From an uncultured Bacteroidia bacterium (lineage in GTDB: Bacteria; Bacteroidota; Bacteroidia; J057; CALLMJ01), in contig CAZBPK010000131.1 in NCBI GenBank assembly GCA_964493765.1, forward strand, positions 19,875-83,874: 64,000 nt of DNA. Direction: 5' to 3'. Positions 332-46,948 of this stretch are shown one piece after another (positions within the stretch are counted from its first letter, which is position 1; each line of letters begins with the position of its first letter). Under the pieces are notes generated by a model. It saw nothing but the letters and a program-made list of their open reading frames with translations, was not told the origin of the DNA and made no database searches. The position numbers and the translations under genes were made by a program.

Positions 332-455
332 GGGCGTGCCCCTTGCTACGCTGCGGGTCGGGGTGCTTCGGGCTTCGCTGTTCGCTTCGGCAATCCTTTG
401 CCTGCTCATACTTCCCTAACAAAGGCAGTGCTGAACCCTTCGCTTCCCTCACGCT
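332..455 (+). repeat. GC-rich structured intergenic element, copy A (124 nt)
   Basis: GGGCGTGCCCCTTGCTACGC...GGCAGTGC...TTCCCTCACGCT. Identical to copy B over its first 69 nt. Lies 77 nt downstream of the nrdJ stop, same orientation. Confidence 0.9.
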
Positions 456-571
456 CTCATTAACAATTAAAATTGTGTAATGGACTTTTGTTGAAATACA
501 ATTTTTTTGCTTGCAAATTTTTGTTTTGTATTTCCTTAGAAAATTTATGGCTTTTTTTTTAAATTATGCTG

Positions 572-579
572 TATCTTTG
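572..579 (+). promoter_or_regulatory. Bacteroidota -7 promoter box TAtcTTTG
   Basis: Exact TAnnTTTG match 9 nt upstream of ATG 588. Confidence 0.45.
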
Positions 580-587
580 CCCTTGAT

Positions 588-2456
588 ATGAATTTTTTAT
601 CCGTTGAAAAACTATCAAAATCCTTTGGTGAAAGGGTACTTTTTCAAGATTTAACATTTGGAATTGAACATGGGCAAAAAGTTGGTTTTATTGCACCTAA
701 TGGAAGTGGAAAATCAACCCTTTTAAATATAATTCTTGGTAAAACATTACCCGATTCAGGCATAGTAGCGATTAAAAAAAATTTAAAAATTGGCTATTTA
801 GAACAAAACCCTGACTTTCAATTTCATAGCAAACTTTCTGATTATCTTTATGATAGTGATTATGAACCTTGTAAAATCTGGAAATCCTATTTACACTCCT
901 TAGAAAATCCCTTAGAACCCAAAGATTACCAAATTTTAATGGATAAAATGGAACAATATCAAGTTTGGACTTATGAAAACCGTTTGAAAGAAATTTTGAA
1001 TCGCTTGGGTTTAGATTGGGAAATGTATATTGATAACCTTTCTGGAGGTCAAAAGAAAAAATTAGCATTAGCTAAATTATTGGTTAACCAACCTGATTTA
1101 TTGATTTTAGATGAGCCTACCAACCATTTGGATTTAGATATGATTGAATGGTTAGAAAATTATTTACAACAAAGTTCCATTACTTTATTTTTGGTTACTC
1201 ACGACAGATATTTTTTAGAAAATGTATGTTCAGAAATTCTTGAACTTTTTCAAGGAAAATTATATTTTTATCAAGGCAACTATCAATATTATTTAGAACA
1301 AAAATCCCATCGACATGAATTATTTTTAAAAGAAATTGAAAAAGCCCAAAACGCATATAGAAAAGAATTAGAATGGATACGTCGCCAACCTAAAGCAAGG
1401 ACTACTAAATCCAAAGCAAGAATTGATGCTTTTTATGAAATTGCAGAAAAAGCTTTCCAAAAAATTGAAAACAAAAAAGTTGAAATTGAAATTAACATGG
1501 AAAGAATGGGCTCTAAAATTTTAGAAATTCATAATATTTCCAAGTCCTATCAAAATAAAATTTTGTTTTCCCAATTTACCTATAAATTCAAGCAGGGGGA
1601 AAAAGTGGGTATTATTGGAAAAAATGGCAGTGGAAAATCTACATTTTTAAAAATTTTAATGTCTGAAATTGAGCCTGATACAGGTAAAGTGGTTTGGGGT
1701 GATACTATAAAATATGCTTACTACAGCCAAGAAGGTTTGCAAGTAGATGAAAACAAAAGAGTCATTGAAGTGGTTAAAGATATTGCTGAATATATCCCTT
1801 TGAAAAAAGGTCGTAAACTTTCAGCAATTCAATTATTAGAAAAATTTTTATTTCGTCATGAACAGCATTACACTTTGGTAAGTCAGTTAAGTGGAGGTGA
1901 GAAAAGGAGATTGTATTTGGTTACTTTACTAATGAAAAACCCTAATTTTTTGATTTTAGATGAACCTACTAATGATTTAGATATTGATACACTCTCTGCT
2001 TTAGAAGATTTTTTGGATGATTTTCCGGGTTGTATTTTAGTGGTTTCTCATGACCGATATTTTATGGATAGGGTAGTTGAACACTTGTTTGTTCTTGGTG
2101 AGTTGGATCACGGAGAAATTAAAGATTTTCCAGGTAATTATACTGAATTTTTAGCTTGGAAAGAAGTTAATCTTAATCATAGTTCGGCTAAAACTCAAGA
2201 AAATACAGTACAATCCAAAACCTCACAAAATTTAGAAGTTAAAAATGCTACCAAAAAATTAAGTTACAAAGAACAACGTGAGTTGCAACAAATAGAGAAA
2301 GAATTACCCGATTTAGAACAAAAAAAGAAAGATTTAGAACTTGCAATGAATCAAAACCTTACTTTTGAAGAATTGCAAAAAATCTCTAAAGAATATGAAT
2401 TGATCAATGAAAAAATTGAGGAGTATTCTATGAGGTGGTTAGAACTATCTGAGTAA
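588..2456 (+). CDS. ABC-F family ATPase (two ABC ATP-binding domains, no TM domain; Uup/YheS-like)
   Basis: Two Walker A motifs (GPNGSGKST, GKNGSGKST), two LSGGQ/LSGGE signatures, an inter-domain linker and a C-terminal coiled-coil tail. Confidence 0.9.
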   Translation: MNFLSVEKLSKSFGERVLFQDLTFGIEHGQKVGFIAPNGSGKSTLLNIILGKTLPDSGIVAIKKNLKIGYLEQNPDFQFHSKLSDYLYDSDYEPCKIWKSYLHSLENPLEPKDYQILMDKMEQYQVWTYENRLKEILNRLGLDWEMYIDNLSGGQKKKLALAKLLVNQPDLLILDEPTNHLDLDMIEWLENYLQQSSITLFLVTHDRYFLENVCSEILELFQGKLYFYQGNYQYYLEQKSHRHELFLKEIEKAQNAYRKELEWIRRQPKARTTKSKARIDAFYEIAEKAFQKIENKKVEIEINMERMGSKILEIHNISKSYQNKILFSQFTYKFKQGEKVGIIGKNGSGKSTFLKILMSEIEPDTGKVVWGDTIKYAYYSQEGLQVDENKRVIEVVKDIAEYIPLKKGRKLSAIQLLEKFLFRHEQHYTLVSQLSGGEKRRLYLVTLLMKNPNFLILDEPTNDLDIDTLSALEDFLDDFPGCILVVSHDRYFMDRVVEHLFVLGELDHGEIKDFPGNYTEFLAWKEVNLNHSSAKTQENTVQSKTSQNLEVKNATKKLSYKEQRELQQIEKELPDLEQKKKDLELAMNQNLTFEELQKISKEYELINEKIEEYSMRWLELSE

Positions 2457-2494
2457 TTACAGAAAATCAGAATAAAAACAAAGTTTTTAGGGAA

Positions 2495-2623
2495 AGCGTG
2501 AGGGATGCGGAGGGAGCGAAGCTGCACTGCCTTTGGCTGCGAAAAATGAGCAGTCAAAGGATTGCCGAAGCGAACAGCGAAGCCCGAAGCACCCCGACCC
2601 GCAGCGTAGCAAGGGGCACGCCC
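2495..2623 (-). repeat. GC-rich structured intergenic element, copy B (129 nt)
   Basis: The reverse complement aligns end to end with copy A. Lies 23 nt downstream of the stop of the minus-strand gene 2647-4041, same orientation. Confidence 0.9.
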
Positions 2624-2646
2624 AAATAATTTATAAAGAATAATTT

Positions 2647-4041
2647 TTAAGAATTTTCAATCCAATGGGTTTTGATATTTACTAACTCTCTGGGGATTAA
2701 GGTACTCCATAAACCTAATTGAGCTCTTGCGTCATTACCCCAGCCCGGTACGGAAACTACTCCAGGAGGTCCGTTAAGTCCTAAACAAACTACTGCTTGC
2801 ATAGCTAATTTTCCTACTTTTGGATCACTATGTTGAATTGCTAAACGCACACCCACTTCATTCAATTGATTTAAAAAGTTTTGATCTTGAATAGGCGCAG
2901 CTTCACCATGAATGCCGTTCACTCCGATGATATCAAAGCGTTTTTTTTCAATTTTGAGAGGTAAAGTACTCCAAATTTCTTGAACAGCTTGAATAAATTT
3001 TTGTGCTTTTGTATAAGCGAATGGATAAGAAAAAAAGAAAAATTGGTCGGTCATAAAACCTTCCATCAATCCAATACAAAGTTTGAGTTTTTCGGGTCTT
3101 GGTTTTCCTTTGGCACCTTTAACTTCCACTTTTCCATTTTCTAATTCAGTGATTTGAACGTGTGTAAAGTCACAGATTACGTCGGGAGTAATATAGTTTT
3201 GAGGGTCATGAACTTCATAAACCAACTGTTCTCTTAAAGTATTACGGGATAGCTTTCCACCCATAAAATCGGGTTTAAATAAATGAGCAGAACCATTTTC
3301 AAAAACGGTAGCAATAGGGTATCCTAATCTGCTTAAATTATAATCCATAGGCCACTCAGCATAAGAATTGCCCCCTGAAGCCTGCCCACCACATTCTAAT
3401 AAATGTCCAACCAAAATACCACTTGCAAGTAAATCCCAATCTTTGGAATCCAAATCACTGCCAATTTTCCAACCAAATTCATGAATTAAAATTCCTAAAG
3501 TTAAGGCGGGATCGGCAACTCTACCAGTAAGAACAATATGAGCACCTTGATTTAAAGCTTCTGCAACTTCTTTTGCACCCGTATAAACATTGGCATGAGT
3601 AACAGTAAATTGATTTTCAGAAAAGTTACGATTGTCATCTATGTTGGTTAATGGTTCTCCTTTTGATTGGATATCCCCTAATTTAGACATTAAGTCATCG
3701 CCTGTTAAACAAGCAATTTTAATATCATTAAGCCCAAGATTTTTTAAAATACTTTGAATTTTGACTGCTGCAGAAAGTGGATTTAAACCACCGGAATTGG
3801 TAACAATTTTTGCTCCTTTTTTTAGTGCGGTTGACCAAACCATTTTCGCTAAAATTTCAATATCACGGGCATAACCCATTTCAGGGTCTTTTAATTTATC
3901 TTTTTGAAGAATAGATAAAGTTAATTCTGATAAGGCATCATGAACCAAATATTGAGCAATACCGGCTTGAGCAATCATAGCACCCGCCATTGGGCTATCT
4001 CCATAAAAACCTTGCACACCAGCAATCGTTACTGATTTCAT
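2647..4041 (-). CDS. AtuA-like / DUF1446 family protein (acyclic terpene utilisation family)
   Basis: 464 aa. The N-terminus IAGVQGFYGDSP and overall length recall the DUF1446 family. Assignment is from memory of the family, not a search. Confidence 0.65.
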   Translation of the reverse strand: MKSVTIAGVQGFYGDSPMAGAMIAQAGIAQYLVHDALSELTLSILQKDKLKDPEMGYARDIEILAKMVWSTALKKGAKIVTNSGGLNPLSAAVKIQSILKNLGLNDIKIACLTGDDLMSKLGDIQSKGEPLTNIDDNRNFSENQFTVTHANVYTGAKEVAEALNQGAHIVLTGRVADPALTLGILIHEFGWKIGSDLDSKDWDLLASGILVGHLLECGGQASGGNSYAEWPMDYNLSRLGYPIATVFENGSAHLFKPDFMGGKLSRNTLREQLVYEVHDPQNYITPDVICDFTHVQITELENGKVEVKGAKGKPRPEKLKLCIGLMEGFMTDQFFFFSYPFAYTKAQKFIQAVQEIWSTLPLKIEKKRFDIIGVNGIHGEAAPIQDQNFLNQLNEVGVRLAIQHSDPKVGKLAMQAVVCLGLNGPPGVVSVPGWGNDARAQLGLWSTLIPRELVNIKTHWIENS

Positions 4042-4130
4042 TATTTTAAATTTGGCTGCAAATTAAGAATAAAAACTATACTTACAAATATATTTTTGTA
4101 TTTTTTGAGGTTGTTTTGGGAATTGGGTTT

Positions 4131-6028: not shown

Positions 6029-6434
6029 TTTTTATAAGTTGTTGAAATTCAGAATAATCTCTTATATAATCGTTTTCGTTGTATAAGCTAGAAGCAAAAA
6101 CTAACTGAACGGCATTAAAATAGTATTGCATAGTATGCCAAGCCTTTGGAGGAATATACAGTCCAATAGAAGGTTTTTCTAAAACAAATGTCTCTAATTT
6201 TCCACTGGGCAATTCTGTATTGACAACAATTCTACCTGCTGCTGCAATTAATATCATTTCAGTTTCATGATGAGCATGTCTTCCTCTAACAATGTGATCA
6301 GGAGTTTGGTAGGTCCAGAAAGTTCTTTTTACTTCAAATGGAATGGATTTCTCAAATTCAGCAATAGAAATAAATCCTTCGCCAATTTCTCCAACTGTTT
6401 GAAATTCAATTAAATAGGGTTTATTATCAGACAT
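6015..6434 (-). CDS. fdtA: WxcM/FdtA-like cupin (sugar 3,4-ketoisomerase family)
   Basis: 139 aa. Motifs FEVKRTFWTY, RGRHAHHETEMILIAAAG and YIPPKAWH are typical of FdtA/WxcM-like domains. Overlaps the downstream gene by 14 nt. Confidence 0.75.
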   Translation of the reverse strand: MSDNKPYLIEFQTVGEIGEGFISIAEFEKSIPFEVKRTFWTYQTPDHIVRGRHAHHETEMILIAAAGRIVVNTELPSGKLETFVLEKPSIGLYIPPKAWHTMQYYFNAVQLVFASSLYNENDYIRDYSEFQQLIKNGKI

Positions 6435-6455
6435 AAGTTATCAATAAAAGGTTCG

Positions 6456-6463
6456 CAAATATA
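6456..6463 (-). promoter_or_regulatory. -7 promoter box TAtaTTTG (minus strand)
   Basis: Plus-strand CAAATATA, 22 nt upstream of ATG 6434. Confidence 0.45.
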
Positions 6464-6501
6464 GTTTTATTTTGTTTTTAATTACTAATATTTAAAATTT
6501 T

Positions 6502-7620
6502 CTAAGGATTTATCAAAGGATATTCAAAACATTCATTCCCTACACAGAATTCAAAAAAATAATTTGATTTTGGAAGCCCTGAAATACTAATACTTCCTTC
6601 AAAATTTCCTTTCTTCAAAGTAATATTCTTGGATTTTAAAATCTCACCTTTTGAGTTTTTTAGACGTATGGTAGCTTTTTGAGGTTTTTGGACTTTGTAA
6701 ACATAATTGTATTCGTTAGGTTGAGTTGAGGGTTTTGGGGGAGAAACCCAAAAATTTTTAATTACTTTGGGTTCAATACAATAATCAGAAGAAGTCCAGA
6801 TATCATTTTTATAATAAGCTAATAAACGGAAGCATTTTTTTTCTGAATCAAGTTGATCGGGATTAAAAATGTATTCCATAAAATTTTGATTAGCAAAAGT
6901 ATAATTTTGAGCATTAAAACAACTCAAAGTTTTATAACCATTTTGCATTTTGATTTGCAAGGCATAGCCTAAGACATCAGGATTTTCATGTGTCCATTGT
7001 ATTTTGAGTTGGTTATTTTGGGAATCTATTTGAAGGGGTTGTTTCCAATTTGGGGTTCTGGGTAAATAATCAAAACGTAGGTATTTACAAAAATCAAAGG
7101 GATGGAACTCCTCTAATTCAAAAACACCAACAGTAAATTGGCAGATGGTTCCATCAAAACCATCAATGTAAAGCATAAGTTTTGAGTATTGTTGAGGGTT
7201 TTGAATGTTAAATTTTATTGTATCACCAACATCCTTAGTTGCACAAGCAATGAAATTTTGAGAAAGATTTTTGCAGTCATAAGTGGAATATAAAATGGAT
7301 TGAACGCCAGCAGGCGTATTACAAAGAAAGGGATAGATGATTATTTGTAAAGGTTTATGGACGTTTTGAGTTTCAATGGAGTACCATAAATCGTTTTCAA
7401 AGGTGTTAATGCAAGAGTTAGGAACAGCAGGCGGAAGTTCATTTTTGTTTAAAGTTGCAAATTGATTATTTTGGTCTTTGAGCCATTCATTAATTTTAAG
7501 TGGAGTAGGGGAGAAGCAGTCGTCGTTATTGGGTTTTTGGGCAAAAGTAATAAAAGAGAAGCAGATAGAAAAGGCAAAAATGATGGTGGTAAAGCGTGAG
7601 GGATGTGAAGGGTTTAGCAC
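6502..7620 (-). CDS. Secreted hypothetical protein (signal peptide; possible beta-sandwich C-terminal domain)
   Basis: The ORF-track start at 7755 reads through repeat copy C. There is no in-frame ATG before the hydrophobic signal segment. In-frame GTG at 7620 gives MLNPSHPSRFTTIIFAFSICFSFITFAQ|K. Confidence 0.55.
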   Translation of the reverse strand: MLNPSHPSRFTTIIFAFSICFSFITFAQKPNNDDCFSPTPLKINEWLKDQNNQFATLNKNELPPAVPNSCINTFENDLWYSIETQNVHKPLQIIIYPFLCNTPAGVQSILYSTYDCKNLSQNFIACATKDVGDTIKFNIQNPQQYSKLMLYIDGFDGTICQFTVGVFELEEFHPFDFCKYLRFDYLPRTPNWKQPLQIDSQNNQLKIQWTHENPDVLGYALQIKMQNGYKTLSCFNAQNYTFANQNFMEYIFNPDQLDSEKKCFRLLAYYKNDIWTSSDYCIEPKVIKNFWVSPPKPSTQPNEYNYVYKVQKPQKATIRLKNSKGEILKSKNITLKKGNFEGSISISGLPKSNYFFEFCVGNECFEYPLINP

Positions 7621-7721
7621 TGCCTTTTTGGGCTTTTGGAAAAAGGAAAAAAAGGATTGCCGAAGCGAACAGCGAAGCCCGAAACAGCCCGACCCAAAGC
7701 GTTTAGCGAAGGGACACGCCC
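7593..7721 (-). repeat. GC-rich structured intergenic element, copy C (129 nt)
   Basis: Reverse complement GGGCGTGTCCCTTCGC...GGCAGTGCTAAACCCTTCACATCCCTCACGCT. Lies 11 nt downstream of the gmhB stop, same orientation. Overlaps the 5' end of the next CDS. Confidence 0.9.
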
Positions 7722-7732
7722 AAAATATATAC

Positions 7733-8242
7733 CTAAACCAGAATGCTAAGAACATCAGAAATTTCTGGAAAAAAATAATCTGCGGAATACATAGGGTCTT
7801 GCACGCCCACTAATACAGTTGTAATTCCCAGCAATTTTGCTGGTGTTAAATCATGTTGTTTGTCTCCGAGCATAAAGGAAATATTAGGGTCTATATTAAA
7901 GGAATGAATAGCCCTTTCAAAAAATAAATTTTCCGGTTTTCTACAAAGGCATCGTGTTTGTTCAGGGTGATGAGGACAATAATAAACATGGTCAATTTTA
8001 GCACCAAAAGCTAGTAAACGATTTAACATAAAATCATGAATGATTTGTAAATCGGTATGAGTATAAAGCCCTTTAGAAATGCCTCCCTGATTGGTAATAA
8101 CGATAACTTTATAGTTGAGCCAATTAGCCATTGAAATAAGCTCAACAATACCGGGTTTGAATTGGAATTTTTCTAAAGAAGTAATATATCCAACTTCTTC
8201 GTTGATTACACCGTCTCTATCTAAGAACAATCCTTTGTTCAT
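7733..8242 (-). CDS. gmhB: D-glycero-D-manno-heptose 1,7-bisphosphate phosphatase (HAD-IIIA)
   Basis: FLDRDGVIN catalytic motif, ITNQGGI, Zn-finger insertion CPHHPEQTRCLCRKP and GDKQHD. Confidence 0.8.
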   Translation of the reverse strand: MNKGLFLDRDGVINEEVGYITSLEKFQFKPGIVELISMANWLNYKVIVITNQGGISKGLYTHTDLQIIHDFMLNRLLAFGAKIDHVYYCPHHPEQTRCLCRKPENLFFERAIHSFNIDPNISFMLGDKQHDLTPAKLLGITTVLVGVQDPMYSADYFFPEISDVLSILV

Positions 8243-8257
8243 GAACCATAATAAGGG

Positions 8258-9220: not shown

Positions 9221-9226
9221 GATGAT

Positions 9227-9790: not shown

Positions 9791-9806
9791 AAAAAATAAA
9801 TTTCTA

Positions 9807-9814
9807 CAAATTTA
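9807..9814 (-). promoter_or_regulatory. -7 promoter box TAaaTTTG (minus strand)
   Basis: Plus-strand CAAATTTA, 17 nt upstream of ATG 9790. Overlaps the 3' end of the upstream CDS. Confidence 0.4.
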
Positions 9815-10681: not shown

Positions 10682-10694
10682 AATAATTAATGAG

Positions 10695-12272: not shown

Positions 12273-12286
12273 AAAATGGACAAGAA

Positions 12287-12796: not shown

Positions 12797-12816
12797 TTAA
12801 CAAAAAAATTTGACTA

Positions 12817-16698: not shown

Positions 16699-16772
16699 GC
16701 GTTCGTAGCTCAATTGGATAGAGCATTTGACTTCGGATCAAACGGTTGAGGGTTCGAATCCTTCCGGACGCA
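16699..16772 (+). tRNA. tRNA-Arg (anticodon UCG)
   Basis: Manual cloverleaf. Acceptor GCGTTCG/CGGACGC has one G-U pair. D arm GCTC-AATTGGATA-GAGC. Anticodon stem TTTGA/TCAAA with loop CT-TCG-GA. T arm GAGGG-TTCGAAT-CCTTC. Discriminator A; no encoded CCA. Confidence 0.9.
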
Positions 16773-16792
16773 CAAATTTTACTGCAATTTTT

Positions 16793-34100: not shown

Positions 34101-37100
34101 AATGCCAATGCTTCTTTCTCTAATTTATTGGTTACCACATATTTCCGTGTAAAAGCTACTGCCCCCGGTACTTGTAACGTCGTCTATTCTAACATAGATA
34201 CCGTTTATGTAGTGCCACAACCTATTGCGGGAACAATTATCGCTTCGCAAAATCCTGTTTGTGCAGGACAAACTACCTTGCTCACTTTAACAGGTTACCA
34301 AGCCGATTCTATACAGTGGCAACAACTTGTAGGTAGTTCCTGGACCAACGTAGGAACCAATAATGATGTATATTTGACCAACGCTATTACCTCTAATGCT
34401 TTCTTTAGAGCCAAAGTATTTAACGCTAATTGTGGTCCTGTGACTACCCCCGTATTTACAGTAAATGTTTTACCCGGTTCTGTTGCCTCAGTTACTATTG
34501 CCGCTTCACAAACTACGTTCTGTCAAGGACAATCAATTACTTTTACGGCTACTGCAGTCAATGCTTCTTCTTCACCTAGTTACCAATGGTACGTGAATGG
34601 AATCCCCGTTGTAGCTAGTGGAAATACATATACTGCTAACAATTTACAAAATGGAGACCAAGTCCAAGTAGAAATGACTTTAACAGGAAGTTGTGGTTCA
34701 GGAACTTTCCCTTCTAATATTATTACGGTGAATGTCAATCCTGTACCTACGGTAAATATTACTTCTGCTACTTCGGGAGTATTATGCCAAGGAAGTTCTC
34801 TAACTTTTAATGCTACTCCTAATCCTGCTATTTCAACTGTGATTTGGTATGTAAACAATAATAATACAGGCGTAACAGGAAATACCTTTACTTCTTCTAG
34901 CTTAATGAACGGAGACGTAGTAAGTGCTTATGCAGTTTCTGCAGCCAATTGTACTTCTGCTGTATCCAATCTAATCAATGTAACCTTAAGCCCAACGCCT
35001 TCCATTGTAATATCTGCTTCTGCTACACAAATTTGCCAAGGTGAACAAGTTCTGTTTACTTCTACCCCTATCAATGCAGGTTTTTCGCCTACTTATCAAT
35101 GGCAAATCAATACTGGTTCAGGCTTTGTGAACATTCCAGGGGCAACAGGAGCAACTTATAGCTCTAATACTTTAACCAATGGAAATGTCATTCGTTGTAT
35201 TATTACCTCTGCTGATGGTTGCACAGGAACAGGCTCTATTTCTAATCCTATTGCGATTACCGTAGGAGATTACCCCACCATTACAATTACGGCAAGCCAA
35301 ACGACTATTTGCCAAGGGGATAACGTAACCTTTAGTGTTACTAACGTAACAAACGCAGGACCTAACCCCACTTATCAATGGAAAATCAATGGCGCTAACG
35401 TAGGCTCTAATAACCCCACTTTCACTACCAATCAATTGAATAATGGCGATGTGGTTTATTGTGTAATTACTTCTACACAAGGCTGTTCAGGACCGCAATC
35501 CGTTTCTAATTCTATTATCATGAATGTCAATCCTATTCCGAGTATATCCATTATAGCCTCAGCCAATCCCATCTGTCAAGGGCAGTCTGTAACTTTTGTG
35601 GCTACCGTAGCTAATGGCGGACCTAACCCCAGTTATCAATGGCAATTAAACGGCTCTAATGTAGGAGCCAATACTTCTTCTATCACACTCAATAACTTGA
35701 ACGATGGAGATATTATCACTTGCACGGTGGTCTCTACTGCAGGTTGTTCTGGACCCAATTCTACTTCTGCACCTATTGTTATGGACGTTCTTCCTTTACC
35801 TTCCGTGATTATATCTGCCAATACTACTACTATATGCCCTGGTGATGCAGTAACATTTGTAGCGAATCCCGCAAATGCAGGAGCCAATCCTACTTATTTA
35901 TGGGATATCAATGGCGTAACACAAGCCACAGGTTCGCCCGTATTTACTACTACTAATTTGAATAATGGAGACCAAGTTACTTGTACTATGATTTCTGATT
36001 TAGGTTGCCAAGGACCCGCTTCTAATATTATTACCATTACAGTAAATCCTATTCCTACGGTAACCGTGAGTGCTTCTTCCACTAGTATTTGCTCAGGGCA
36101 ATCGGTTACTTTTACGGCTACGGTAACTAATGGTGGTACTTCGCCTACTTATATATGGCGCTTAAATAACAATATCACAGGAACCAATTCTCCTTCATTC
36201 GTGAGTTCTAGTTTAAATAATGGAGACGTAATTACATGTCAAGTAATTTCTACCGATGGTTGTACAGGAACAGGTTCTACAAGTACGCCCATAGTGATTA
36301 CGGTAAATCCTACACCCACAGTAAGTTTAAATGCTGTTCCAGGAACAACAGTTTGTGCGGGACAAACCATCAATTTCATTGCAACAGGTAACCCTGCCGC
36401 AGGGGCAACTTATGAATGGACTATCAATGGCGTAGTACAAGCAGGACAAACAGGCTCTGCTTTCTCTACTAACGCTTTGAATAATGGAGACGTAGTCGGA
36501 GTAAGTATAATATCTTCAGCAGGTTGCACTAACGCTAATCCCGCAACTTTAAGCGTAACCATTTTACCTGAACCTACGGTTTCTATTTCTGCAAGTGCTA
36601 ACCCCATTTGCCAAGGACAATCGGTTACCTTCACAGCCATTCCTCAAAATGGTGGTATTACACCCGCCTATACGTGGAAAGTCAATGGTATTATTGTAGG
36701 AACCAATTCCCCTACTTATACTGCTTCTAATTTAAACAATGGCGATGTGGTTACTTGTACCATTACTTCGCAACAAGGTTGTTCGGGAAGCAATTCAGTT
36801 TCTAATGCTATTACAATGGTAGTCAATGGATTACCCACTGTAAGTATTGCGGGACCGAATAACATTTGTGCAGGGGCTACTGCTACTTATACCGCTACTC
36901 CTAATAATGCGGGACCGAATCCTAGTTATCAATGGTTTGTCAATGGAATTGCACAGCCCGGAAGCAACAACCCTGTATTTACTACCAATACGCTAACAAA
37001 CGGAAGCCAAGTTCAATGTGTAATTACAAGCACAGACGGTTGTTCAGGGGCAGGCTCGGCTTCAAATATTATTTTTGTGAATGTTAATTCTACTCCTACC

Positions 37101-40100
37101 GTAAACATAACGGCTTCAGCTACAACGGTATGTCCTGGAACCTCAGTAACCTTTACCGCAACCGCTTCTACCACTTCTACTTATCAATGGCAAATCAACG
37201 GAGTAGATGTTCCTAATGCTACAGGTAATACCTTTACAACCAATACTTTACAAAATGGAGATGTAGTTACTTGTGTGGTAACGAGTATCAATGGTTGTTC
37301 AGGACCACAGTCTTTATCTAATCCTATAGCCATTACAGTTCAAGGCTCTGCCACAGTAAGTATCAGTGCAACCGATACCACAATATGCGCTGGTCAAATG
37401 GTAGTATTTACCGCTACAGCGAACGGTGCTGGTCCTAATCCTAGTTTCCAATGGAAAATTAATAACCAAAATGTAGGCGTGAATAGCCCCATCTTCCAAT
37501 CTAATACTTTACAAGATGGAGATGTAGTAACCGTTCAGGTGACTTCTACGGGCGGCTGTTCAGGGGCTACTTCTTTTGCACCACCGATTATTATGTCTGT
37601 TACTCCAACCCCATCCGCTCAAATTTCTGCTTCCTCTACTACCATCTGTCAAGGAGATAATGTCACATTTACGGCTAATGTAATCAATGGCGGCTCTAAT
37701 CCTACTTATAGCTGGTTAGTGAACGGCATCCAACAAGGAACTTTGCCAGTATTTAGTACTAATACTTTGAATAATAACGATGTAGTAACATTAGTAGTAA
37801 GTGTCAATGGTTGTACATCAGCACCTTCTAATGCAATTGTAATGACCGTAAATCCTATTCCTACGGTTACGCTGTTAGCTTCTGCTACTACAATTTGCAC
37901 TACTTCTACGGTGAACTTTACGGCTGTTCCTAATAATGCAGGTAGTAATCCTAGTTATCAATGGTTTTTAAATGGTAATCCTATTGTTGGAGTAACAGGA
38001 AATACTTACAGCACGAATACATTAAATAATGGGGATTCGGTGAGTGTTCAAGTAACATCTAGTGCAGGTTGTACAGGCAGTGCATCAGCACAAGGCGTAG
38101 TAATTACAGTCAATCCTGGAGCCAATGGCAACTTTACCATTGCAAGCCCAGATACACAATGTGTCAATAATCAATCATTTAATTTTGTAGCACCACCGGC
38201 TTCACCACAAGCGACTTATTTCTGGACTTTCAGCCCTGATGGTAATCCTTTAGCCGCAAATACGGCTTCTGTAAACGGTGTTTCTTTTGGCTCGCCCGGC
38301 TTGAAAACTATCACCTTACAAATTACAGACCCTGCTATTTCTAATTGTACGACTACTGTAAGTAAACAAGTGATGGTTCTTCCTGCACCATTAGCAAGCT
38401 TTGTTCAACCTGCTGACCAATGTATCACGGGCAATAATTTTACTTTTATTAACAATGGAACTTCTGCACCCGGCGCAATCTACAACTGGAACTTTGGTCC
38501 TTTAGCTCAACCTTCTACTTCCTTAGACCCCAATCCTACTAATATAGTGTTCACTCAACCAGGCACTTATCCTGTAACCTTAACAGTAACTTATAATGGC
38601 TGTTCTGATGATACAACTATCAATGTAACGGTAGAACCCGTTCCTGTCATCAATTTGGGGCAAGATATCGGTATATGTGTTAATGACCCATTCCCTGTGT
38701 TAGATGCAGGTATAGCTAATGCAAGTTATGAATGGTTCTTAGATGGAATGCCTTTTGGGGGCAATACGCAAACGTTACAAACTACCCAAGCAGGTACGTA
38801 TTCTGTAAGAGTAACAACGCCTGCAGGCTGTGTGGCTACCGATGCAATTGTAATTTCTGTAACCAATGGCTTACAAGTCAATCTAGGTCCTGATGTATAT
38901 GTATGTAAAACTGACCCCCGACCTATCTTAGATGCAGGCATTCCTAATGCGTCTCAATATATCTGGTCATGGAACGGAAACGCTCTACCCCAAAATACAC
39001 AGTTTATTACTGCCGATAGTGCGGGAGTTTATACCGTAGAAGTAATTTCTGCGAGTGGTTGTACAGGTTCTGATGTAGTGATGGTTTACTTACTAGATAG
39101 CCTAAAAGTAGATTTAGGACCAGACCTAACTATTTGTGTAAGTGATCCTCGCCCTACCTTAGACGCAGGTACTATTCCCGGGGCTACTTATGTATGGACT
39201 CTGAACGGTGTGTTCTTATCCAATAGTCCAACCATTGTGGCTAATCAATCTGGTACCTACGTAGCAACTATCGTTAGTCCTTCAGGATGTGTAGGTAAAG
39301 ATGAAATTGTCATTGATATTGTTCCTACTTTAAATGTTAATTTAGGACCTGATATTTATTTCTGTCCTACTTCACCGATTGTATCTATTAATGCACCTGT
39401 TATCCCTGGAGCTAGTTATTCATGGACATTAAATGGTCAACCAATTCCTGTTAATGGCTCTAACTTATTGGATAGTAGAGTAGGATTATATGAAGTCAAA
39501 ATTGTAACTCCCGGTGGCTGTTTAGGTAGTGGTTCGGTAAGAGCCTACAGCATACCTGCGCCTTCAGCATTATTCACAACAAGTGAAGGAGGCTTCCCCA
39601 TCAGTGTATCTAGTTCTAACCCAAGAGTGGAATTTGTAAATCTATCTTCCAATTTTGATAGAGTGCTATGGAACTTTGGGGATAGTACTACTACAAGTTT
39701 AGATACAACTGTCAACCCTGTGCATTATTTCCCACCTTTCCCCGGAGAGTATTATGTTACTTTATACGTTTATAATGGTAACTGTGTAGATTCTATTCAA
39801 TTGGGTCCAATCAAAGTGAGTCCAGTAGAGGAAGCCTTTATTCCTAACGCATTTACTCCTAATAACGATAACATCAATGATGAGTTATATTTCCCTTACT
39901 TAGGTTATAAAACCTATACGCTTGAAATTTATAACCGTTGGGGTCAGTTAGTATTCACCAATGACGGAGACCCTAATCGTTACTGGAAAGGTTTTGACCG
40001 AGAAGGAAAACGATGTGCAGAAGGAGTTTACAGCTATGTTTTCAAAGGAATTAAAGATAACGGCGAAAATGTAGAAATTGTAGGTAGTATTACATTATTA

Positions 40101-40106
40101 AGATAA
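31149..40106 (+). CDS. Giant (2985 aa) cell-surface adhesin-like protein with T9SS type B (gliding-motility-associated) C-terminal domain
   Basis: Domain order: signal-like N-terminus, a beta-helix-like region, ~330 aa of Gly-rich sequence, PKD-like domains, 3+14+4 tandem Ig-like modules, and a C-terminal IPNAFTPNNDNINDELYF...YNRWGQLVF...GVYSYVF domain. Confidence 0.9.
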   Translation: MLIKIPNTLNKNWLLINLLVFITAGSLNAQDPCGAGRIWYVKPNGCTGGPGCGSRTNPAELVWAINQASISATSGSPHAIRLATGSYVYNNVIELKSDIYIEGGYSEADDWKKTNSSVTDIRRTNANVETAFPPRLILFRGVNITNFRLHDLYIHVDDAPNLAFVNDGISVYGIYLNSCNDYHIVRCEITTGRGSDGKPGPNGNQGGNGGFGGFGGNGGESGGVCSAFGGGGTPGSAGFGGAGGAVGTGGVASNPNQSGGNGGAGGNGGAGGQGSPTNSANSGQNGNPGGGGGNGVAVGGGGGAGGTGFGGGTQGFVTSGPATCCDPARPKGGNGQPGTNGTPGFNGADASTFGIIYSSGYYAPNWGRGGGGGAGGSGGGGGSGGAGNNSACQGFACFSCCCLGDNGGGGGGGGGGGAGGGAGAGGYGGGSSFGIFLWNNGVSSRIIDCGITTGGAGIGGNGGLGANGGTGGGGRTGGGAVQKGGPGGDGAGGASGAKGGNGGRGLDGVSWAIANQGGGTLPTISGFGCTVNSDPNCGAVPNNPYVINVELLEGCTFSEITTSKLSGPGSSYSFPTGNVLATSGNTSVVYYTSTGRKTVTVVGSGANPTVSYTQFVDIFTDRLLPGIASLDANLGIDTSAVCAYGSLNFQHIEALGRFNDANTLEWLWDFPGGTMANGSPVPLSVRQLKDPGQIYFRTPGTYTISLRVKHNCCGWSSPITKVIKVQPIPQVYITGPRLVCIGSPATFTANATLPVSLDPDPEFQWNINGIPMTGFVAQSANGHIFTTSSLNNNDVLGVQIRSSNPFLCTNPGPTVIMPNFPLSADTHQVTITDPSVGGFAYIGNNPIVQQADVCFGSTQIVNILGQSPAPLATIQWQISTDGINYTDIPGGILPTLTTLPITNDPTYFRAKVTNGGCPPAFSTPAQFNLLPGAIAGTVTVDPATDTICAGATATMTVSGYSGTIEWQYTTDPNVPSSWITTAQTNANASFSNLLVTTYFRVKATAPGTCNVVYSNIDTVYVVPQPIAGTIIASQNPVCAGQTTLLTLTGYQADSIQWQQLVGSSWTNVGTNNDVYLTNAITSNAFFRAKVFNANCGPVTTPVFTVNVLPGSVASVTIAASQTTFCQGQSITFTATAVNASSSPSYQWYVNGIPVVASGNTYTANNLQNGDQVQVEMTLTGSCGSGTFPSNIITVNVNPVPTVNITSATSGVLCQGSSLTFNATPNPAISTVIWYVNNNNTGVTGNTFTSSSLMNGDVVSAYAVSAANCTSAVSNLINVTLSPTPSIVISASATQICQGEQVLFTSTPINAGFSPTYQWQINTGSGFVNIPGATGATYSSNTLTNGNVIRCIITSADGCTGTGSISNPIAITVGDYPTITITASQTTICQGDNVTFSVTNVTNAGPNPTYQWKINGANVGSNNPTFTTNQLNNGDVVYCVITSTQGCSGPQSVSNSIIMNVNPIPSISIIASANPICQGQSVTFVATVANGGPNPSYQWQLNGSNVGANTSSITLNNLNDGDIITCTVVSTAGCSGPNSTSAPIVMDVLPLPSVIISANTTTICPGDAVTFVANPANAGANPTYLWDINGVTQATGSPVFTTTNLNNGDQVTCTMISDLGCQGPASNIITITVNPIPTVTVSASSTSICSGQSVTFTATVTNGGTSPTYIWRLNNNITGTNSPSFVSSSLNNGDVITCQVISTDGCTGTGSTSTPIVITVNPTPTVSLNAVPGTTVCAGQTINFIATGNPAAGATYEWTINGVVQAGQTGSAFSTNALNNGDVVGVSIISSAGCTNANPATLSVTILPEPTVSISASANPICQGQSVTFTAIPQNGGITPAYTWKVNGIIVGTNSPTYTASNLNNGDVVTCTITSQQGCSGSNSVSNAITMVVNGLPTVSIAGPNNICAGATATYTATPNNAGPNPSYQWFVNGIAQPGSNNPVFTTNTLTNGSQVQCVITSTDGCSGAGSASNIIFVNVNSTPTVNITASATTVCPGTSVTFTATASTTSTYQWQINGVDVPNATGNTFTTNTLQNGDVVTCVVTSINGCSGPQSLSNPIAITVQGSATVSISATDTTICAGQMVVFTATANGAGPNPSFQWKINNQNVGVNSPIFQSNTLQDGDVVTVQVTSTGGCSGATSFAPPIIMSVTPTPSAQISASSTTICQGDNVTFTANVINGGSNPTYSWLVNGIQQGTLPVFSTNTLNNNDVVTLVVSVNGCTSAPSNAIVMTVNPIPTVTLLASATTICTTSTVNFTAVPNNAGSNPSYQWFLNGNPIVGVTGNTYSTNTLNNGDSVSVQVTSSAGCTGSASAQGVVITVNPGANGNFTIASPDTQCVNNQSFNFVAPPASPQATYFWTFSPDGNPLAANTASVNGVSFGSPGLKTITLQITDPAISNCTTTVSKQVMVLPAPLASFVQPADQCITGNNFTFINNGTSAPGAIYNWNFGPLAQPSTSLDPNPTNIVFTQPGTYPVTLTVTYNGCSDDTTINVTVEPVPVINLGQDIGICVNDPFPVLDAGIANASYEWFLDGMPFGGNTQTLQTTQAGTYSVRVTTPAGCVATDAIVISVTNGLQVNLGPDVYVCKTDPRPILDAGIPNASQYIWSWNGNALPQNTQFITADSAGVYTVEVISASGCTGSDVVMVYLLDSLKVDLGPDLTICVSDPRPTLDAGTIPGATYVWTLNGVFLSNSPTIVANQSGTYVATIVSPSGCVGKDEIVIDIVPTLNVNLGPDIYFCPTSPIVSINAPVIPGASYSWTLNGQPIPVNGSNLLDSRVGLYEVKIVTPGGCLGSGSVRAYSIPAPSALFTTSEGGFPISVSSSNPRVEFVNLSSNFDRVLWNFGDSTTTSLDTTVNPVHYFPPFPGEYYVTLYVYNGNCVDSIQLGPIKVSPVEEAFIPNAFTPNNDNINDELYFPYLGYKTYTLEIYNRWGQLVFTNDGDPNRYWKGFDREGKRCAEGVYSYVFKGIKDNGENVEIVGSITLLR
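31720..32705 (+). repeat. Glycine-rich low-complexity region (GGxGG / GxGGxG repeats), local GC island
   Basis: The translation is dominated by GGNGGAGG, GGFGG and GGGGGGGGGG runs. The DNA is visibly GC-rich because of GGN codons, and it spawns Pro-rich antisense shadow ORFs (32239-32773). Confidence 0.85.
33620..34478 (+). repeat. 3 tandem ~95-aa Ig-like modules (I(Q/E)WQ...F(F/Y)R(A/V)K type)
   Basis: Recurring pattern C-x-G-x(n)-IQWQ/IEWQ-x(n)-YFRAKV/YFRVKA/FFRAKV-x(n)-C. Confidence 0.7.
34480..38117 (+). repeat. 14 tandem ~86-aa (~260 bp) Ig-like modules
   Basis: Each unit follows the pattern P(T/S)VxIxAS...IC(Q/A/P)G..VTFTA....G.NP(S/T)YQW.(I/V)NG.......F....L.NGD.V.C.(I/V)TS..GC.G......I...VNP. 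I counted 14 units by eye in the translation. Confidence 0.85.
38640..39560 (+). repeat. 4 tandem ~77-aa modules (NLGPD...C...DP.P.LDAG...Y.W..NG...G.Y.V......GC..D type)
   Basis: Four consecutive units are visible in the translation, from VPVINLGQDIGIC to VRAYSIPA. Confidence 0.75.
39828..40103 (+). other. T9SS type B C-terminal sorting domain (gliding motility-associated CTD) of the giant protein
   Basis: The motif series FIPNAFTPNNDNINDELYF, YNRWGQLVF, YWKG and GVYSYVF is characteristic of the CHU_C/type B CTD family. Confidence 0.8.
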
Positions 40107-40130
40107 TTACTGTCAATAGTTTTAAAGAAA

Positions 40131-40164
40131 ATGGCAACTTTTTATAAGTTGCCATTTTTATTTT
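40131..40164 (+). terminator. Rho-independent terminator of the giant gene
   Basis: ATGGCAACTT-tttat-AAGTTGCCAT followed by TTTTATTTT, 25 nt after the stop. Confidence 0.7.
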
Positions 40165-40192
40165 GTAAAGTTTGATAAAAGATTAAAGATAA

Positions 40193-40319
40193 GGGCGTGT
40201 CCCTTGCTACGCTGCGGGTCGGGCTGCTTTGGGTTTCACTTCGTTTCAGCAATCCTTTGGCTGCTCAAAATTTGCACCCAAAGGCAGTGCCACTTTGTGC
40301 CCTACGCATCCCTCACGCT
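40193..40319 (+). repeat. GC-rich structured intergenic element, copy D (127 nt)
   Basis: GGGCGTGTCCCTTGCTACGCTGCGGGTCGGGCTGC...GGCAGTGCCACTTTGTGCCCTACGCATCCCTCACGCT. Sits between two terminator hairpins. Confidence 0.9.
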
Positions 40320-40334
40320 TGGCTTTTACTCATT

Positions 40335-40365
40335 AAAAAAGTCCGTACTAAATACGGACTTTTTA
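40335..40365. terminator. Bidirectional rho-independent terminator (pnp on minus strand; possibly copy D on plus strand)
   Basis: AAAAAA-GTCCGTA-ctaaa-TACGGAC-TTTTTATT. The A-run and T-run flank an 8-bp stem. It is 24 nt after the pnp stop and 16 nt after repeat copy D. Confidence 0.7.
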
Positions 40366-40388
40366 TTGTTTTTAATTTACAATATAAA

Positions 40389-42560: not shown

Positions 42561-42574
42561 GAAGTCTTAAAGAA

Positions 42575-42850: not shown

Positions 42851-42867
42851 TTTTTCTTTTTAAAACG

Positions 42868-42875
42868 CAAAATTA
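42868..42875 (-). promoter_or_regulatory. -7 promoter box TAatTTTG (minus strand)
   Basis: Plus-strand CAAAATTA, 18 nt upstream of ATG 42850 (rpsO). Confidence 0.45.
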
Positions 42876-42951
42876 CTGTTTATGTTTATAACTACCAAAT
42901 AAAATTTAAAAATTTTGAGTTTAATTGTGGAAAAATTGTTGCTATGATTAT

Positions 42952-43629: not shown

Positions 43630-43764
43630 GCTTCAAAATTGTTACCTAGTTTAAATTTATCATTGGAAAAAATTTAGTTTTTGTAACATGATAAACGCAT
43701 ATTCAGAAAAACTTGGGAAAAGAAAAAATATAGTTTATTTTTACCGAAAATTTAAACAATCATA

Positions 43765-44979: not shown

Positions 44980-44994
44980 AATTTTATACTTACC

Positions 44995-46794
44995 ATGAAT
45001 ATATTTGTTGTCAATGCAGGTTCATCTTCCATCAAATGTGAATTAATTAATGCCAAATCCCAAAAAAGGATTAGTAAATTTAGTGTTGAAAGGTTAAATT
45101 CAGAACAACCTATTCTTAAATATTCAGGACAAGAAATTTCTTTAAATTCAAAAGGAATGGAAAATGTTTTTCCTGAAGCTTTAAAATACTGGCAAGCACA
45201 ATGTTCTGAAAATATTGATGCAGTTGCCCATCGTGTAGTTCATGGTGGTGAAAAATTGTTTGAACCTACTATTGTAACCCATGAAGTAAAAAAAATATTA
45301 GAAGAAACTTGTGTACTTGCACCCCTTCATAATCCTGTAAACTTAAAAGGTATTGAAGTTACCGAAAATTATTTTCTAAATATTCCTCAAATTGCTGTAT
45401 TTGATACTGGTTTTCATTCAACCATTCCTAGAAGAGCAAGACTTTACGCAATTCCTAAAAATCTTACCGAAAAATACCATATAAGAAGATTTGGTTTTCA
45501 CGGCATTTCCCACCAATTTGTTGCACAAAAAGCAGCAGATTTCTTGGATACACCATTAAAAAATTTACGATTAATCACTTGTCATTTAGGAAATGGATGT
45601 TCTATTACAGCTATTGAATACGGTAGTTCGGTTGAAACCAGTACTGGAATGACACCCTTAGAAGGCTTAGTCATGGGAACACGTTCTGGAGATATTGATT
45701 TTGGTGCTGCTGCATTCATTGCTCAAAAAGAAGGGTTATCCATTATTGAATTAGAAAAACTTTTGAATAATGAAAGTGGCTTAAAAGGTTTAAGTGGTAT
45801 TGGCAACGACATGCGTGATATTTTAAAAGCCGCTCAAGATGGAAATGAAGACGCTAGAATGGCGATTCAAGTTTTTGCTCATAGACTTAGAAAATATATT
45901 GGTGCTTATGCCGCTGTTATGGGTGGTGTTGATGCAATTATTTTTACTGGTGGTATTGGTGAAAATAGCCCTGAAATTAGACATAGAGTTTGTCAAAGAT
46001 TAGATTTTCTTGGGGCAATTATCAATGAAGATTTGAATCGAGAAAATAATCCTAATTCAGAAAATCCAGTTATTTTATTTTCAGAACCTCATTCTCGCGT
46101 TAAACTTCTTTCTATTTTAACCGATGAACAGCTTTCCATTGCTAAACAAGCCTATGATTTATTAATGAAAAATGCTCAATTAAATCAACAAAAATCTATT
46201 CCTATTGCTGTTTCTGCTCGTCACATTCATTTAACTCAAGAAGCTGTTGAGATTCTATTTGGTAAAGGTTACCAATTAACCGAATTAAGACCTTTGTCTC
46301 AACCCGGTCAATTTGCTGCTAAAGAAACCGTTACATTAATTGGACCCAGAAATAAAATAGAAAATGTGAGAATTTTAGGACCTTGCAGAAATCTTAATCA
46401 AGTGGAAATTTCTAGAACTGATGAATTCTTATTGGGAATTGATGCTCCTGTAAGAGAATCTGGAAACGTTGCTAATTCTCCGGGTATTACACTTCAAGGA
46501 CCTGCTGGGACTTTAACGCTTCATGAAGGTGTGATTTGTGCTTGGAGGCATATTCACATGCACCCAGAAGACGCTTTAGATTTTGGAGTTGACGATAGAG
46601 ACTTGGTTTCAGTGGAAATACACTCCGGTGAAAAATCTTTGATTTTTAATAACGTTTTAATTCGTGTTTCTGATAAATTCAAATTAGAAATGCATATCGA
46701 TACCGATGAAGCCAACGCTGCCGAAGTCAATCAAGGGTTTACTGGGGAATTATTTTTGACAGGTGCAGGTGCTACCTTAATTAAAAGAAAGTAA
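44995..46794 (+). CDS. ackA: Fusion protein: acetate/propionate kinase (AckA) + PduL-type phosphate acyltransferase
   Basis: Residues 1 to ~392 carry AckA motifs (VVNAGSSSIKCEL, HRVVHGG, FHGISH, GGIGENS). Residues ~400-599 align along their length with PduL as I recall it (VSARHIHL, QPGQFAAKETVTL, QVEISRTD, WRHIHM, EMHIDTDEANAA). Confidence 0.85.
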   Translation: MNIFVVNAGSSSIKCELINAKSQKRISKFSVERLNSEQPILKYSGQEISLNSKGMENVFPEALKYWQAQCSENIDAVAHRVVHGGEKLFEPTIVTHEVKKILEETCVLAPLHNPVNLKGIEVTENYFLNIPQIAVFDTGFHSTIPRRARLYAIPKNLTEKYHIRRFGFHGISHQFVAQKAADFLDTPLKNLRLITCHLGNGCSITAIEYGSSVETSTGMTPLEGLVMGTRSGDIDFGAAAFIAQKEGLSIIELEKLLNNESGLKGLSGIGNDMRDILKAAQDGNEDARMAIQVFAHRLRKYIGAYAAVMGGVDAIIFTGGIGENSPEIRHRVCQRLDFLGAIINEDLNRENNPNSENPVILFSEPHSRVKLLSILTDEQLSIAKQAYDLLMKNAQLNQQKSIPIAVSARHIHLTQEAVEILFGKGYQLTELRPLSQPGQFAAKETVTLIGPRNKIENVRILGPCRNLNQVEISRTDEFLLGIDAPVRESGNVANSPGITLQGPAGTLTLHEGVICAWRHIHMHPEDALDFGVDDRDLVSVEIHSGEKSLIFNNVLIRVSDKFKLEMHIDTDEANAAEVNQGFTGELFLTGAGATLIKRK

Positions 46795-46820
46795 AAGTTT
46801 TAGTAAGTTTATAATCATTT

Positions 46821-46948
46821 GGGCGTGCCCCTTGCTTCGCTACGGGTCGGGCTGTTGCGGGCTTCGCTATCGCTTCGGCAATCCTTTGGTTGCTCATACT
46901 TCACAACCAAAGGCAGTGCCACTTCGTGCCCTCCACATCCCTCACGCT
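46821..46948 (+). repeat. GC-rich structured intergenic element, copy E (128 nt)
   Basis: GGGCGTGCCCCTTGCTTCGCTACGGGTCGGGCTGT...GGCAGTGCCACTTCGTGCCCTCCACATCCCTCACGCT. Lies 26 nt after the ackA-pduL stop, same orientation. Confidence 0.9.

Follow-up and report, generated by a model that had tools for sequence, protein, structure and literature searches.

A stretch of 64,000 nt from an uncultured Bacteroidia bacterium (hereafter the window; contig CAZBPK010000131.1, positions 19,875 to 83,874) carries five copies of a G+C-rich element of 124-129 nt, each beginning shortly after a stop codon on its own strand. Is this element an RNA, a regulatory tail of the genes that precede it, or a mobile piece of DNA? 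An initial annotation, made from the sequence alone, did not recognize a known family in it and leaned towards a role in the 3′ untranslated region (3′ UTR). Sequence comparison instead places the five elements in a lineage-specific, expanded subfamily of an already catalogued motif, Flavo-1 (Rfam RF01705), and we consider it probable (roughly 0.6) that they are non-autonomous, selfish repeats resembling repetitive extragenic palindromic (REP) elements and REPINs, recognized as a folded single strand. The Flavo-1 family itself has been catalogued since 2010; what is new is that one of its subfamilies goes undetected by the Rfam model and that the anatomy extends to a three-way junction.

Relationship of the five elements to Flavo-1

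Copies A (332-455, + strand, 124 nt), B (2495-2623, − strand, 129 nt), C (7593-7721, − strand, 129 nt), D (40193-40319, + strand, 127 nt) and E (46821-46948, + strand, 128 nt) were found where the initial annotation had placed them, and every sequence detail that it listed was verified. Strands are given throughout in its orientation, to which the Rfam orientation of Flavo-1 is opposite. The five aligned copies have a mean column identity of 83%, and the first 69 nt of copies A and B are indeed identical. The 5′ motif GGGCGTGYCCCTT occurs five times in the window, compared with 0.34 occurrences expected from shuffles, and the 3′ end ATCCCTCACGCT is present at the same five sites. A covariance model of the conserved core (CM R1) gives copies A, B, D and E scores of 59.3, 62.7, 60.7 and 69 bits, respectively. 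With 53-63% G+C, the elements stand out as claimed from a window of ~30% G+C, in which an exhaustive nhmmer scan found no sixth or degenerate copy.

Species-representative genomes were scanned with the 5′ module as the pattern, and at least 86 loci were collected. The copies in other Bacteroidota share with those in the window both the 5′ module (GGGCGTGYCCC…GGGTCGGGCT) and the 3′ end (ATCCCTCACGC), and in nearly all listed loci the 3′ end CCTCACGC, which the search pattern did not include, lies 70-210 nt downstream. Among the matches listed, most derive from a single Bacteroidia metagenome-assembled genome (MAG), SKYG108, to which the window does not belong, the others coming from Flavobacterium, Chryseobacterium, Epilithonimonas, Aquimarina, Saprospiraceae, Chitinophagales, Porphyromonadaceae and three spirochaete genomes; the foreign copy closest to the window, again among the matches listed, is in locus L054.

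The link to Flavo-1 emerged solely when these other subfamilies, rather than the window copies, were scanned with Rfam. At the gathering threshold, 18 loci of diverse taxa gave 12 Flavo-1 matches of 42-64 bits on the strand opposite to that used here, with copies in L013, L018, L019, L038, L045, L051, L063 and L069 scoring in this range; those in L013, L018, L019, L038, L045 and L063 (50-64 bits) had earlier been collected for their window-like ends. RF01705 does not detect the window copies at the gathering threshold (42 bits), and at E ≤ 10 it returned noise only for copies A, C and E, the three tested. The SKYG108 types (L001 and L014 scanned) are likewise missed. A linking nhmmer profile was built from nine RF01705-positive, full-length elements only, a choice made to avoid circularity. 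Its matches were precisely the five window copies, each covered from end to end at E values of 6e-8 to 2e-4, and the next match (E = 0.13) lies inside copy C. The window type is thus assigned to Flavo-1 as a divergent, expanded subfamily, and the initial impression of a family not recognized before is not supported, even though the Rfam model itself misses these copies.

The published seed alignment of Flavo-1 carries GCGUGAGGGAU… and …AUAGCCCGACC (Weinberg et al. 2010, PMC2864571), which are the reverse complements of ATCCCTCACGC and GGTCGGGCT in the window; similarly, the shared block GGGTCGGGCT corresponds to …AGCCCGACC in Weinberg's alignment, and ATCCCTCACGC to GCGUGAGGGAU. Both the window elements and Flavo-1 are multi-copy, and in both the Rfam-strand blocks GCGUGAGGGAU… and …AGCCCGACCC surround a long hairpin that contains internal loops and ends in a variable tip. 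Their hosts also agree: Flavo-1 has been described from Flavobacteria, other Bacteroidetes and Spirochaetes (PMC2864571), and the elements collected here occur in Bacteroidota and a few Spirochaetes, including full-length copies in the spirochaete loci L006, L043 and L077. The taxon of the window fits this range, as it encodes a CHU_C type IX secretion domain and its relatives are Bacteroidia MAGs. The differences lie in the long arm of the window copies, which has a further inner shell (GGGC…GCCC) together with a GCAATCCTTT…AAAGGCAGTGC hairpin, canonical Flavo-1 inner loops being replaced or expanded, and in overall size, with 124-129 nt compared with the 76 positions of the RF01705 model.

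Searching the literature with sequence strings of the element returned chance matches only, such as 16S fragments and primers, and keyword searches on transposable elements of the miniature inverted-repeat kind (MITEs) or REPs in Bacteroidetes retrieved nothing that describes it. The idea of a tRNA-like element was dropped, ARAGORN reporting tRNA-Arg only; this tRNA-Arg (TCG) gene, at 16699-16773 (+), is the sole Rfam or ARAGORN match in the window.

The full element is a three-way junction

The complete element is a three-way junction formed by a closing helix (P1), a hairpin (P2) and a long arm, and Rfam covers only the long arm, on the opposite strand. In the orientation used here, a T-rich 5′ flank is followed by GG, the 5′ strand of P1 (GCGTG), the P2 hairpin (CCC…GGG), a TC linker and the long arm, which starts with helix P3 (GGGCTRT/AYAGCCC-like) and ends in a variable terminal hairpin; a T and the 3′ strand of P1 (CACGC) complete the structure. 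In copy E (+ strand), P1 pairs 46823-46827 (GCGTG) with 46943-46947 (CACGC), and equivalent positions are present in all five copies. P2 (CCCC…GGG) occupies 46828-46846, varies in length and sequence and is optional in the wider family. The long irregular hairpin spans 46849-46941, comprising P3 (GGGCTGT/ACATCCC) and everything beyond it, and corresponds to the Rfam-modelled region on the opposite strand plus the extra inner shell. In the Rfam alignment, RF01705 models the long hairpin GGGAUUGNAGCGGAAAUCC…GAUUGUAGCGGAAAGCCCGA only and is without both P1 and P2.

The structural proposals of the initial annotation were borne out. The termini are complementary over 5-6 bp, alignment columns 38/119 hold C:G in three copies and U:A in two, and both alignment and folds support a central hairpin that is preserved through compensatory changes. 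Across the wider family, P3 covaries in a set of 37 hand-picked sequences, in which pair 60/179 is AU in 14, GC in 13 and UA in 6, and again in 150 model-aligned sequences, in which the equivalent pair 84/299 is AU in 73, GC in 59 and UA in 10, and pair 81/302 is GC in 98 and CG in 48. The covariation scores observed in the 150-sequence alignment were reached by no shuffle; such counts take in inherited changes, and the model itself guided this second alignment. In the pattern-selected loci, P1 and the base of P2 show no variation, which is uninformative. Compensated variants of P1 do occur in Flavo-1 matches that lie outside the pattern selection, namely GTGTT/AACAC (L069), GCGTT/AACGC (L045), GCGGC/GCCGC (L051) and GCGCC/GGCGC (L019). 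P2 ranges from 3 bp up to perfect hairpins of at least 11 bp and is missing in some copies, and in both P2 and the terminal hairpin sequence and length change while the hairpin is retained. With P3 covarying in both sequence sets and P1 in divergent copies, a conserved fold does exist.

Placement, turnover and decay of the copies

The element is a dispersed, mostly intergenic repeat whose orientation is independent of the neighboring genes. Copy A lies between nrdJ (stop codon 252-254) upstream and an ABC-F gene (588-2456) downstream. Copies B, D and E are each flanked by convergent genes, respectively ABC-F (+) and AtuA (−), the adhesin (+) and PNPase (−), and AckA-PTAC (+) and a TonB-like gene (−). 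AtuA, the HAD-type gmhB-like gene preceding copy C, the adhesin with its CHU_C domain and AckA-PTAC all match the names first given to them. The distances from the co-oriented stop codon to copies A to E are 77, 23, 11, 86 and 26 nt, inside the reported range of 11-86 nt. The further assertion that the copies are always co-oriented with that gene, as if inserted with an orientation bias, is not supported. Between convergent genes co-orientation is automatic, so that copies A and C are the only informative ones, and two of two is an unremarkable outcome (p = 0.25). Family-wide, a crude open reading frame (ORF) call gives 30 copies in the same and 33 in the opposite orientation between co-directional genes, and the window-type subfamily in metagenomes divides 3 versus 3. 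The same crude call places 41 copies between convergent and 15 between divergent genes.

Copy number varies widely across the family. CM R1 detects 214 copies in 656 kb of pattern-fetched genome loci, and density differs greatly between genomes: many species have a single copy per locus, whereas SKYG108 loci have about one every 2-3 kb. Phage collections contained no match to the element. Xanthomonas plasmids offer a resemblance over 50-63 nt only, which is of uncertain homology and may be a chance match: the Xanthomonas hortorum plasmid pB07007 (L094 3001-3063; NZ_CP016879.1 29401-29463), like 21 related plasmids, has a stretch upstream of parB that is similar to the 5′ module followed by a minimal P3/P1, with 85% identity over 50 nt and 28 bits with CM R1, and that is not an Rfam match. 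In SKYG108 loci, head-to-head pairs of 5′ modules form short perfect palindromes, or REPIN-like dimers, bounded by a T-run at one end and by an A-run at the opposite end (for example, L082 2437-2472, L070 3817-3858, L014 5897-5939 and L058 6520-6611). An A+T-rich repeat, reading …TTTACCTTGTTT…GATTATCAAATACTTACAAGGTTAAAA… and holding internal inverted repeats, often lies directly 3′ of the G+C-rich element in SKYG108 (for example, L001 1823-2000 and L022 5668-5840), giving a composite unit.

Syntenic contigs of relatives, reached through homologs of two window proteins, have the element present, absent, truncated or decayed at orthologous sites. In the ERZ6863929 MAG (86-89% nucleotide identity, with figures of ~88-93% also obtained), the copy at site A is a truncated relic without its 5′ half (L088), site B holds a heavily mutated relic and site C a diverged copy scoring 29 bits with CM R1 (both L095); empty sites A and B had been expected in this relative, and relics were found instead. 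Site C is empty in the KatS3mg035 MAG (L096/L097, ~80% identical). Paralogs within the window are 83-91% identical, compared with 65-85% for orthologous pairs. That paralogs are more alike than orthologs points to homogenization or turnover in the window lineage and to decay in the other.

The element also mediates deletions and rearrangements between copies and accepts nested insertions. Comparison of L013 with L020 reveals a deletion between two direct copies. Between the strains represented by L091 and L090 (99.2% identical), a 272-nt copy-containing stretch is present in the former and absent from the latter, and synteny breaks within another degenerate copy. Two short-read contigs, L087 and L111, both terminate within copy E. 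In L013, four direct copies belonging to two subtypes are also arrayed over 860 nt (6372-7232), and the related L020 has a single hybrid-position copy (1528-1614), as expected from recombination of neighboring copies. A second G+C-rich module (CCCCTCCTAACATTGGAGGGGTGTCCGAAGGACGGGGTGGTTTCGCC) is nested, in one, two or more copies, at a fixed loop position within Flavo-1-type elements of ~77% relatives (L090 16236-16385; L091 7901-8114; L136 4285-4467; L151 and L196 ~2700-2970); its copy number varies between near-identical strains, and it is missing from the window. In a search for further insertion polymorphisms among near-identical metagenome contigs, the multi-segment pairs proved to be CRISPR spacer or nested-module copy-number differences, with no clean empty site among them. 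The CRISPR arrays in these pattern-fetched metagenome contigs, which have the repeat ATTTCAATCCACGAGGCTCTTGCAAGCCTCGAC (L099 2300-2750, L132 2150-2720, L163 11150-11400) and a spacer content that varies among near-identical contigs, are unrelated to the element.

Copy C has been absorbed in frame into a predicted coding region. It begins 11 nt past the gmhB-like stop codon, but the copy is not simply intergenic, as it lies within the ancestral frame of the downstream gene. The ORF at 6502-7755 (−) reads through the copy, whose 129 nt amount to 43 codons, and its frame is open from an ancestral ATG (7753-7755, −) situated within the last nucleotides of the gmhB-like gene, an arrangement also found in L095 (ATG at 5857) and at the empty site of L096 (ATG at 6001). 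A GTG within copy C (7618-7620, −), in frame with the gene, is a candidate new start, and the equivalent GTG was the gene caller's choice for the ortholog P0121. The N-terminus encoded from the ATG would read MFLAFWFRYIF-(43 element codons)-FTTIIFAF… in the window, MFLVSWFNFFI-(element)-FITHSIF… in L095 and, at the empty site of L096, MCLVSCFRSLF-LKKHTP-IFFIWGL…. Indels of -3 and +12 nt distinguish the L095 copy, without closing its frame. The gene is predicted to encode a secreted protein with no Pfam match, in which the repeat lies between the conserved start and the signal-peptide core; orthologs without the element have a short lysine-rich n-region in its place. Copy C is predicted to contribute coding sequence whichever start is used.

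Other features of the window are incidental to the element. AckA-PTAC is encoded by a single ORF of 599 aa (44995-46794, +) that combines acetate kinase with a PTAC (PduL-type phosphotransacylase) domain. An ORF of 491 aa at 14247-15722 (+) matches, by synteny and length, the DnaA gene called in L095, and cumulative GC skew has no turning point there. The 32-34 kb bin reaches 47% G+C compared with ~30% for the window, and 31791-32666 holds 50-nt G+C-rich islands; this stretch, part of the gene for the 2985-aa adhesin (31149-40106), has no relation to the repeat and probably represents a repetitive domain region of this type IX secretion system adhesin.

Candidate roles of the element

On the reading that we favor, a REP/REPIN-like selfish repeat, the conserved junction and loop sequences would be recognized as a folded single strand by a trans-acting factor. 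The most plausible candidate for this factor would be an HUH/Y1-type enzyme acting on single-stranded DNA (ssDNA), because the element has neither a target-site duplication nor a long terminal inverted repeat. In a genome that keeps the factor, copies would remain homogeneous through new copying or gene conversion, and where the factor is lost they would decay. Of the roles suggested in the initial annotation, a miniature element of the Correia or Rickettsia palindromic element (RPE) type is the best supported, stripped of its orientation bias. The flanks are consistent in composition: T occupies positions -1 to -3 of the 5′ flank in 91-92% of copies and A position +1 in 86%. In all five window copies +1 is T, so this position belongs to the element, and palindromic forms bear the T-run…A-run on both sides, such that the T-run may likewise be part of the element rather than of a target. 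No target-site duplication was detected, flank-pair matches being no better than a shuffled-pair control.

Like REPs, REPINs and their RAYT-associated systems, the element is extragenic, structured and high-copy, falls into within-genome subfamilies and lacks target-site duplications; it has inverted dimers in SKYG108, and it decays in some lineages and is homogeneous in others. Occasional in-frame insertion into genes, reported for REPs (PMC6006769), is seen in copy C. The element differs from REPs in having no GT[AG]G (or CGTC) foot, starting instead with GGGCGTG, and in being a three-way junction of 90-130 nt and not a hairpin of 20-40 nt. Copy C, palindromic and in frame within a gene whose frame is kept, may also be likened to RPEs; only one of the five window copies lies in a gene, and the host phylum is another. 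With the palindrome-associated elements derived from IS200/IS605 (PATEs), the element shares the absence of target-site duplications, a fixed TTT on one side only and subterminal hairpins, and recognition as a folded single strand is plausible for it; unlike in PATEs, its two subterminal hairpins are dissimilar, and the opposite orientation of copies A (+) and B (−), 2 kb apart, indicates that there is no strict replication-strand bias. No full-length insertion sequence (IS) with the ends of the element, and no tnpA or tnpB, was seen in the fetched loci. Correia/NEMIS elements of Neisseria, the analogue named in the initial annotation, are likewise structured intergenic repeats of ~100-150 nt, often near gene ends. 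The 26-bp terminal inverted repeats and the TA duplication found in Correia elements are both absent here.

Several observations weigh against this reading. The first group concerns the enzyme. No transposase or RAYT was found: a tblastn search with an IS200 TnpA query gave no match, a search for class-2 HUH/Y motifs was empty in the 1.5 Mb of fetched loci, all of them partial genome stretches, and there was no RAYT near element copies in the window or in these loci. RAYT genes are usually single-copy. All-against-all clustering of 519 ORFs from 86 loci identified no protein family that recurs beside copies, and every orphan 5′ module turned out to be a contig end, a longer variant (of up to ~340 nt) or a palindromic form, and not an IS. 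'Atypical REPs' have been published for the Bacteroidetes-specific RAYT subclass 2.6 (PMC6006769); they are unrelated in sequence to the element, being no more similar to it than shuffles. Genes for AAA_14 + DUF4143 ATPases adjoin copies in the spirochaete loci L006 (574-1821) and L043 (5604-6788) and in L078 of Chryseobacterium (2763-3911). These ATPases were rejected as a partner, since they are only ~22% identical to one another and their arrangement varies, and their proximity is probably coincidence.

The second group concerns the insertions and the fold. A clean recent insertion with exact element boundaries was not found: the relative with an empty site C is only ~80% identical, and in the indel between L091 and L090 the copy is accompanied by 23 and 36 nt of additional flanking sequence, in which there is a ~14-nt inverted match. 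At site E, the element is also present in L111, from a relative with ~73% nucleotide identity, and core sequences are conserved phylum-wide, both of which would also fit a host function under purifying selection. Lastly, the functional strand is ambiguous: judged by minimum free energy, the Rfam strand has a mean advantage of 3.3 kcal/mol and is the better-folding one in 150 of 187 cases, whereas interior G-U pairs are commoner on the strand used here (388 versus 169).

The most serious alternative, although we judge it improbable, is a DNA or ssDNA structural site maintained by the host, for example for binding or recombination, and both spread and kept homogeneous mainly by gene conversion and not by transposition. 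It would account for the sharing of copies A, B and C with the 86-89% relative and of copy E with the ~73% relative, for paralogs that are closer to each other than orthologs are, and for the phylum-wide conservation of the core. It sits poorly with the wholesale decay in one lineage, where neighboring genes have suffered no visible loss, with the empty site in one relative, with copy densities that differ greatly between genomes, and with copies in the distantly related Spirochaetes.

It is unlikely that each copy is an independent small RNA (sRNA) gene, transcribed on the Rfam strand and acting in trans or binding a protein. Rfam labels Flavo-1 'Gene; sRNA' (RF01705), and Weinberg's table scores it 'y, COV V' (PMC2864571). 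Covariation and stems of variable length are indeed hallmarks of structured RNAs, and the Rfam strand, besides folding better, has purine-rich, symmetric internal loops (GAA/GGA, GGA/GUA). Against this stands the lack of transcription signals: the flanks of the five window copies have no promoter-like motif in common on either strand, and no terminator follows the element on either strand, a T-run preceding it on one and an A-run following it on the other. Copies are moreover truncated, decayed, nested and recombined, and they number hundreds per genome, with subfamilies within genomes. In published transcriptomics of F. psychrophilum, Flavo-1 hits are sense or antisense to transcribed regions, and many are untranscribed (PMC9723704).

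An equally unlikely reading, and the one preferred in the initial annotation, is a cis-acting 3′-UTR element that serves the upstream gene as an mRNA stabilizer, processing site or terminator. E. coli REPs do stabilize upstream mRNA, all five window copies start shortly past a same-strand stop codon, and convergent placement exceeds divergent placement across the family. The balanced orientation between co-directional genes, both family-wide and in the window-type subfamily, speaks against such a role, as do the position of copy C within a coding region and the decay of orthologous copies beside conserved flanking genes. In addition, terminator-like hairpins separate two copies from the genes they would serve. 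That of nrdJ, a hairpin (288-313) with a T-run (together 288-323, +), ends before copy A begins. Copy D is bracketed by one after the adhesin gene (hairpin 40127-40159, with its T-run 40127-40169, +) and a palindromic one (hairpin 40336-40364, within 40336-40374) between it and the PNPase gene. Copies A and D are probably outside the main transcripts. The element is not itself an intrinsic terminator, a T-run preceding it and purines following it, and the scans flagged only the separate hairpins beside A and D. Taken together, orientation at random, positions past terminators, relics, nesting and the published transcriptome do not fit an RNA-level role of either kind.

A classical MITE, moved by a DDE transposase that recognizes terminal inverted repeats in double-stranded DNA, is highly improbable: the element is short, non-coding, high-copy and variably present, and its ends TTTG(GG)CGTG and CACGCAAA are loosely inverted, but it has no target-site duplication above the shuffled-pair control and no real terminal inverted repeats (a match of only ~5 bp plus the T/A run, compared with a criterion of at least ~10 bp), its conservation lies in junctions and loops while its stems covary, and no parental IS was seen in the fetched loci.

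For the selfish-repeat reading, a tentative generalization would be that Flavo-1 as a whole is a phylum-wide class of non-autonomous mobile DNA with a three-way-junction fold, copied by an ssDNA-specific enzyme without target-site duplication, kept homogeneous where the enzyme is kept, decaying elsewhere and occasionally co-opted into coding sequence, as may be the case for copy C with its 43 in-frame codons and, possibly, its GTG start and signal-peptide n-region. Flavo-1 has had no assigned function for fifteen years, since its listing as an sRNA in 2010, and ranks with the most abundant 'sRNA' hits when genomes are annotated with Rfam (PMC9029176). What has been catalogued is just one part, the long arm, of a larger element with a three-way junction, and whole subfamilies, including the window type and the very abundant SKYG108 types, escape the Rfam model. 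The elements behave like REP-type selfish repeats: they cause breaks in assemblies, give rise to deletions and rearrangements and can become part of coding regions. If this reading is true, it would be misleading to annotate Flavo-1 in Bacteroidota genomes as an 'sRNA gene', the Rfam model would need extension, and the hunt for the mobilizing or maintaining enzyme in Bacteroidota would become concrete and testable.

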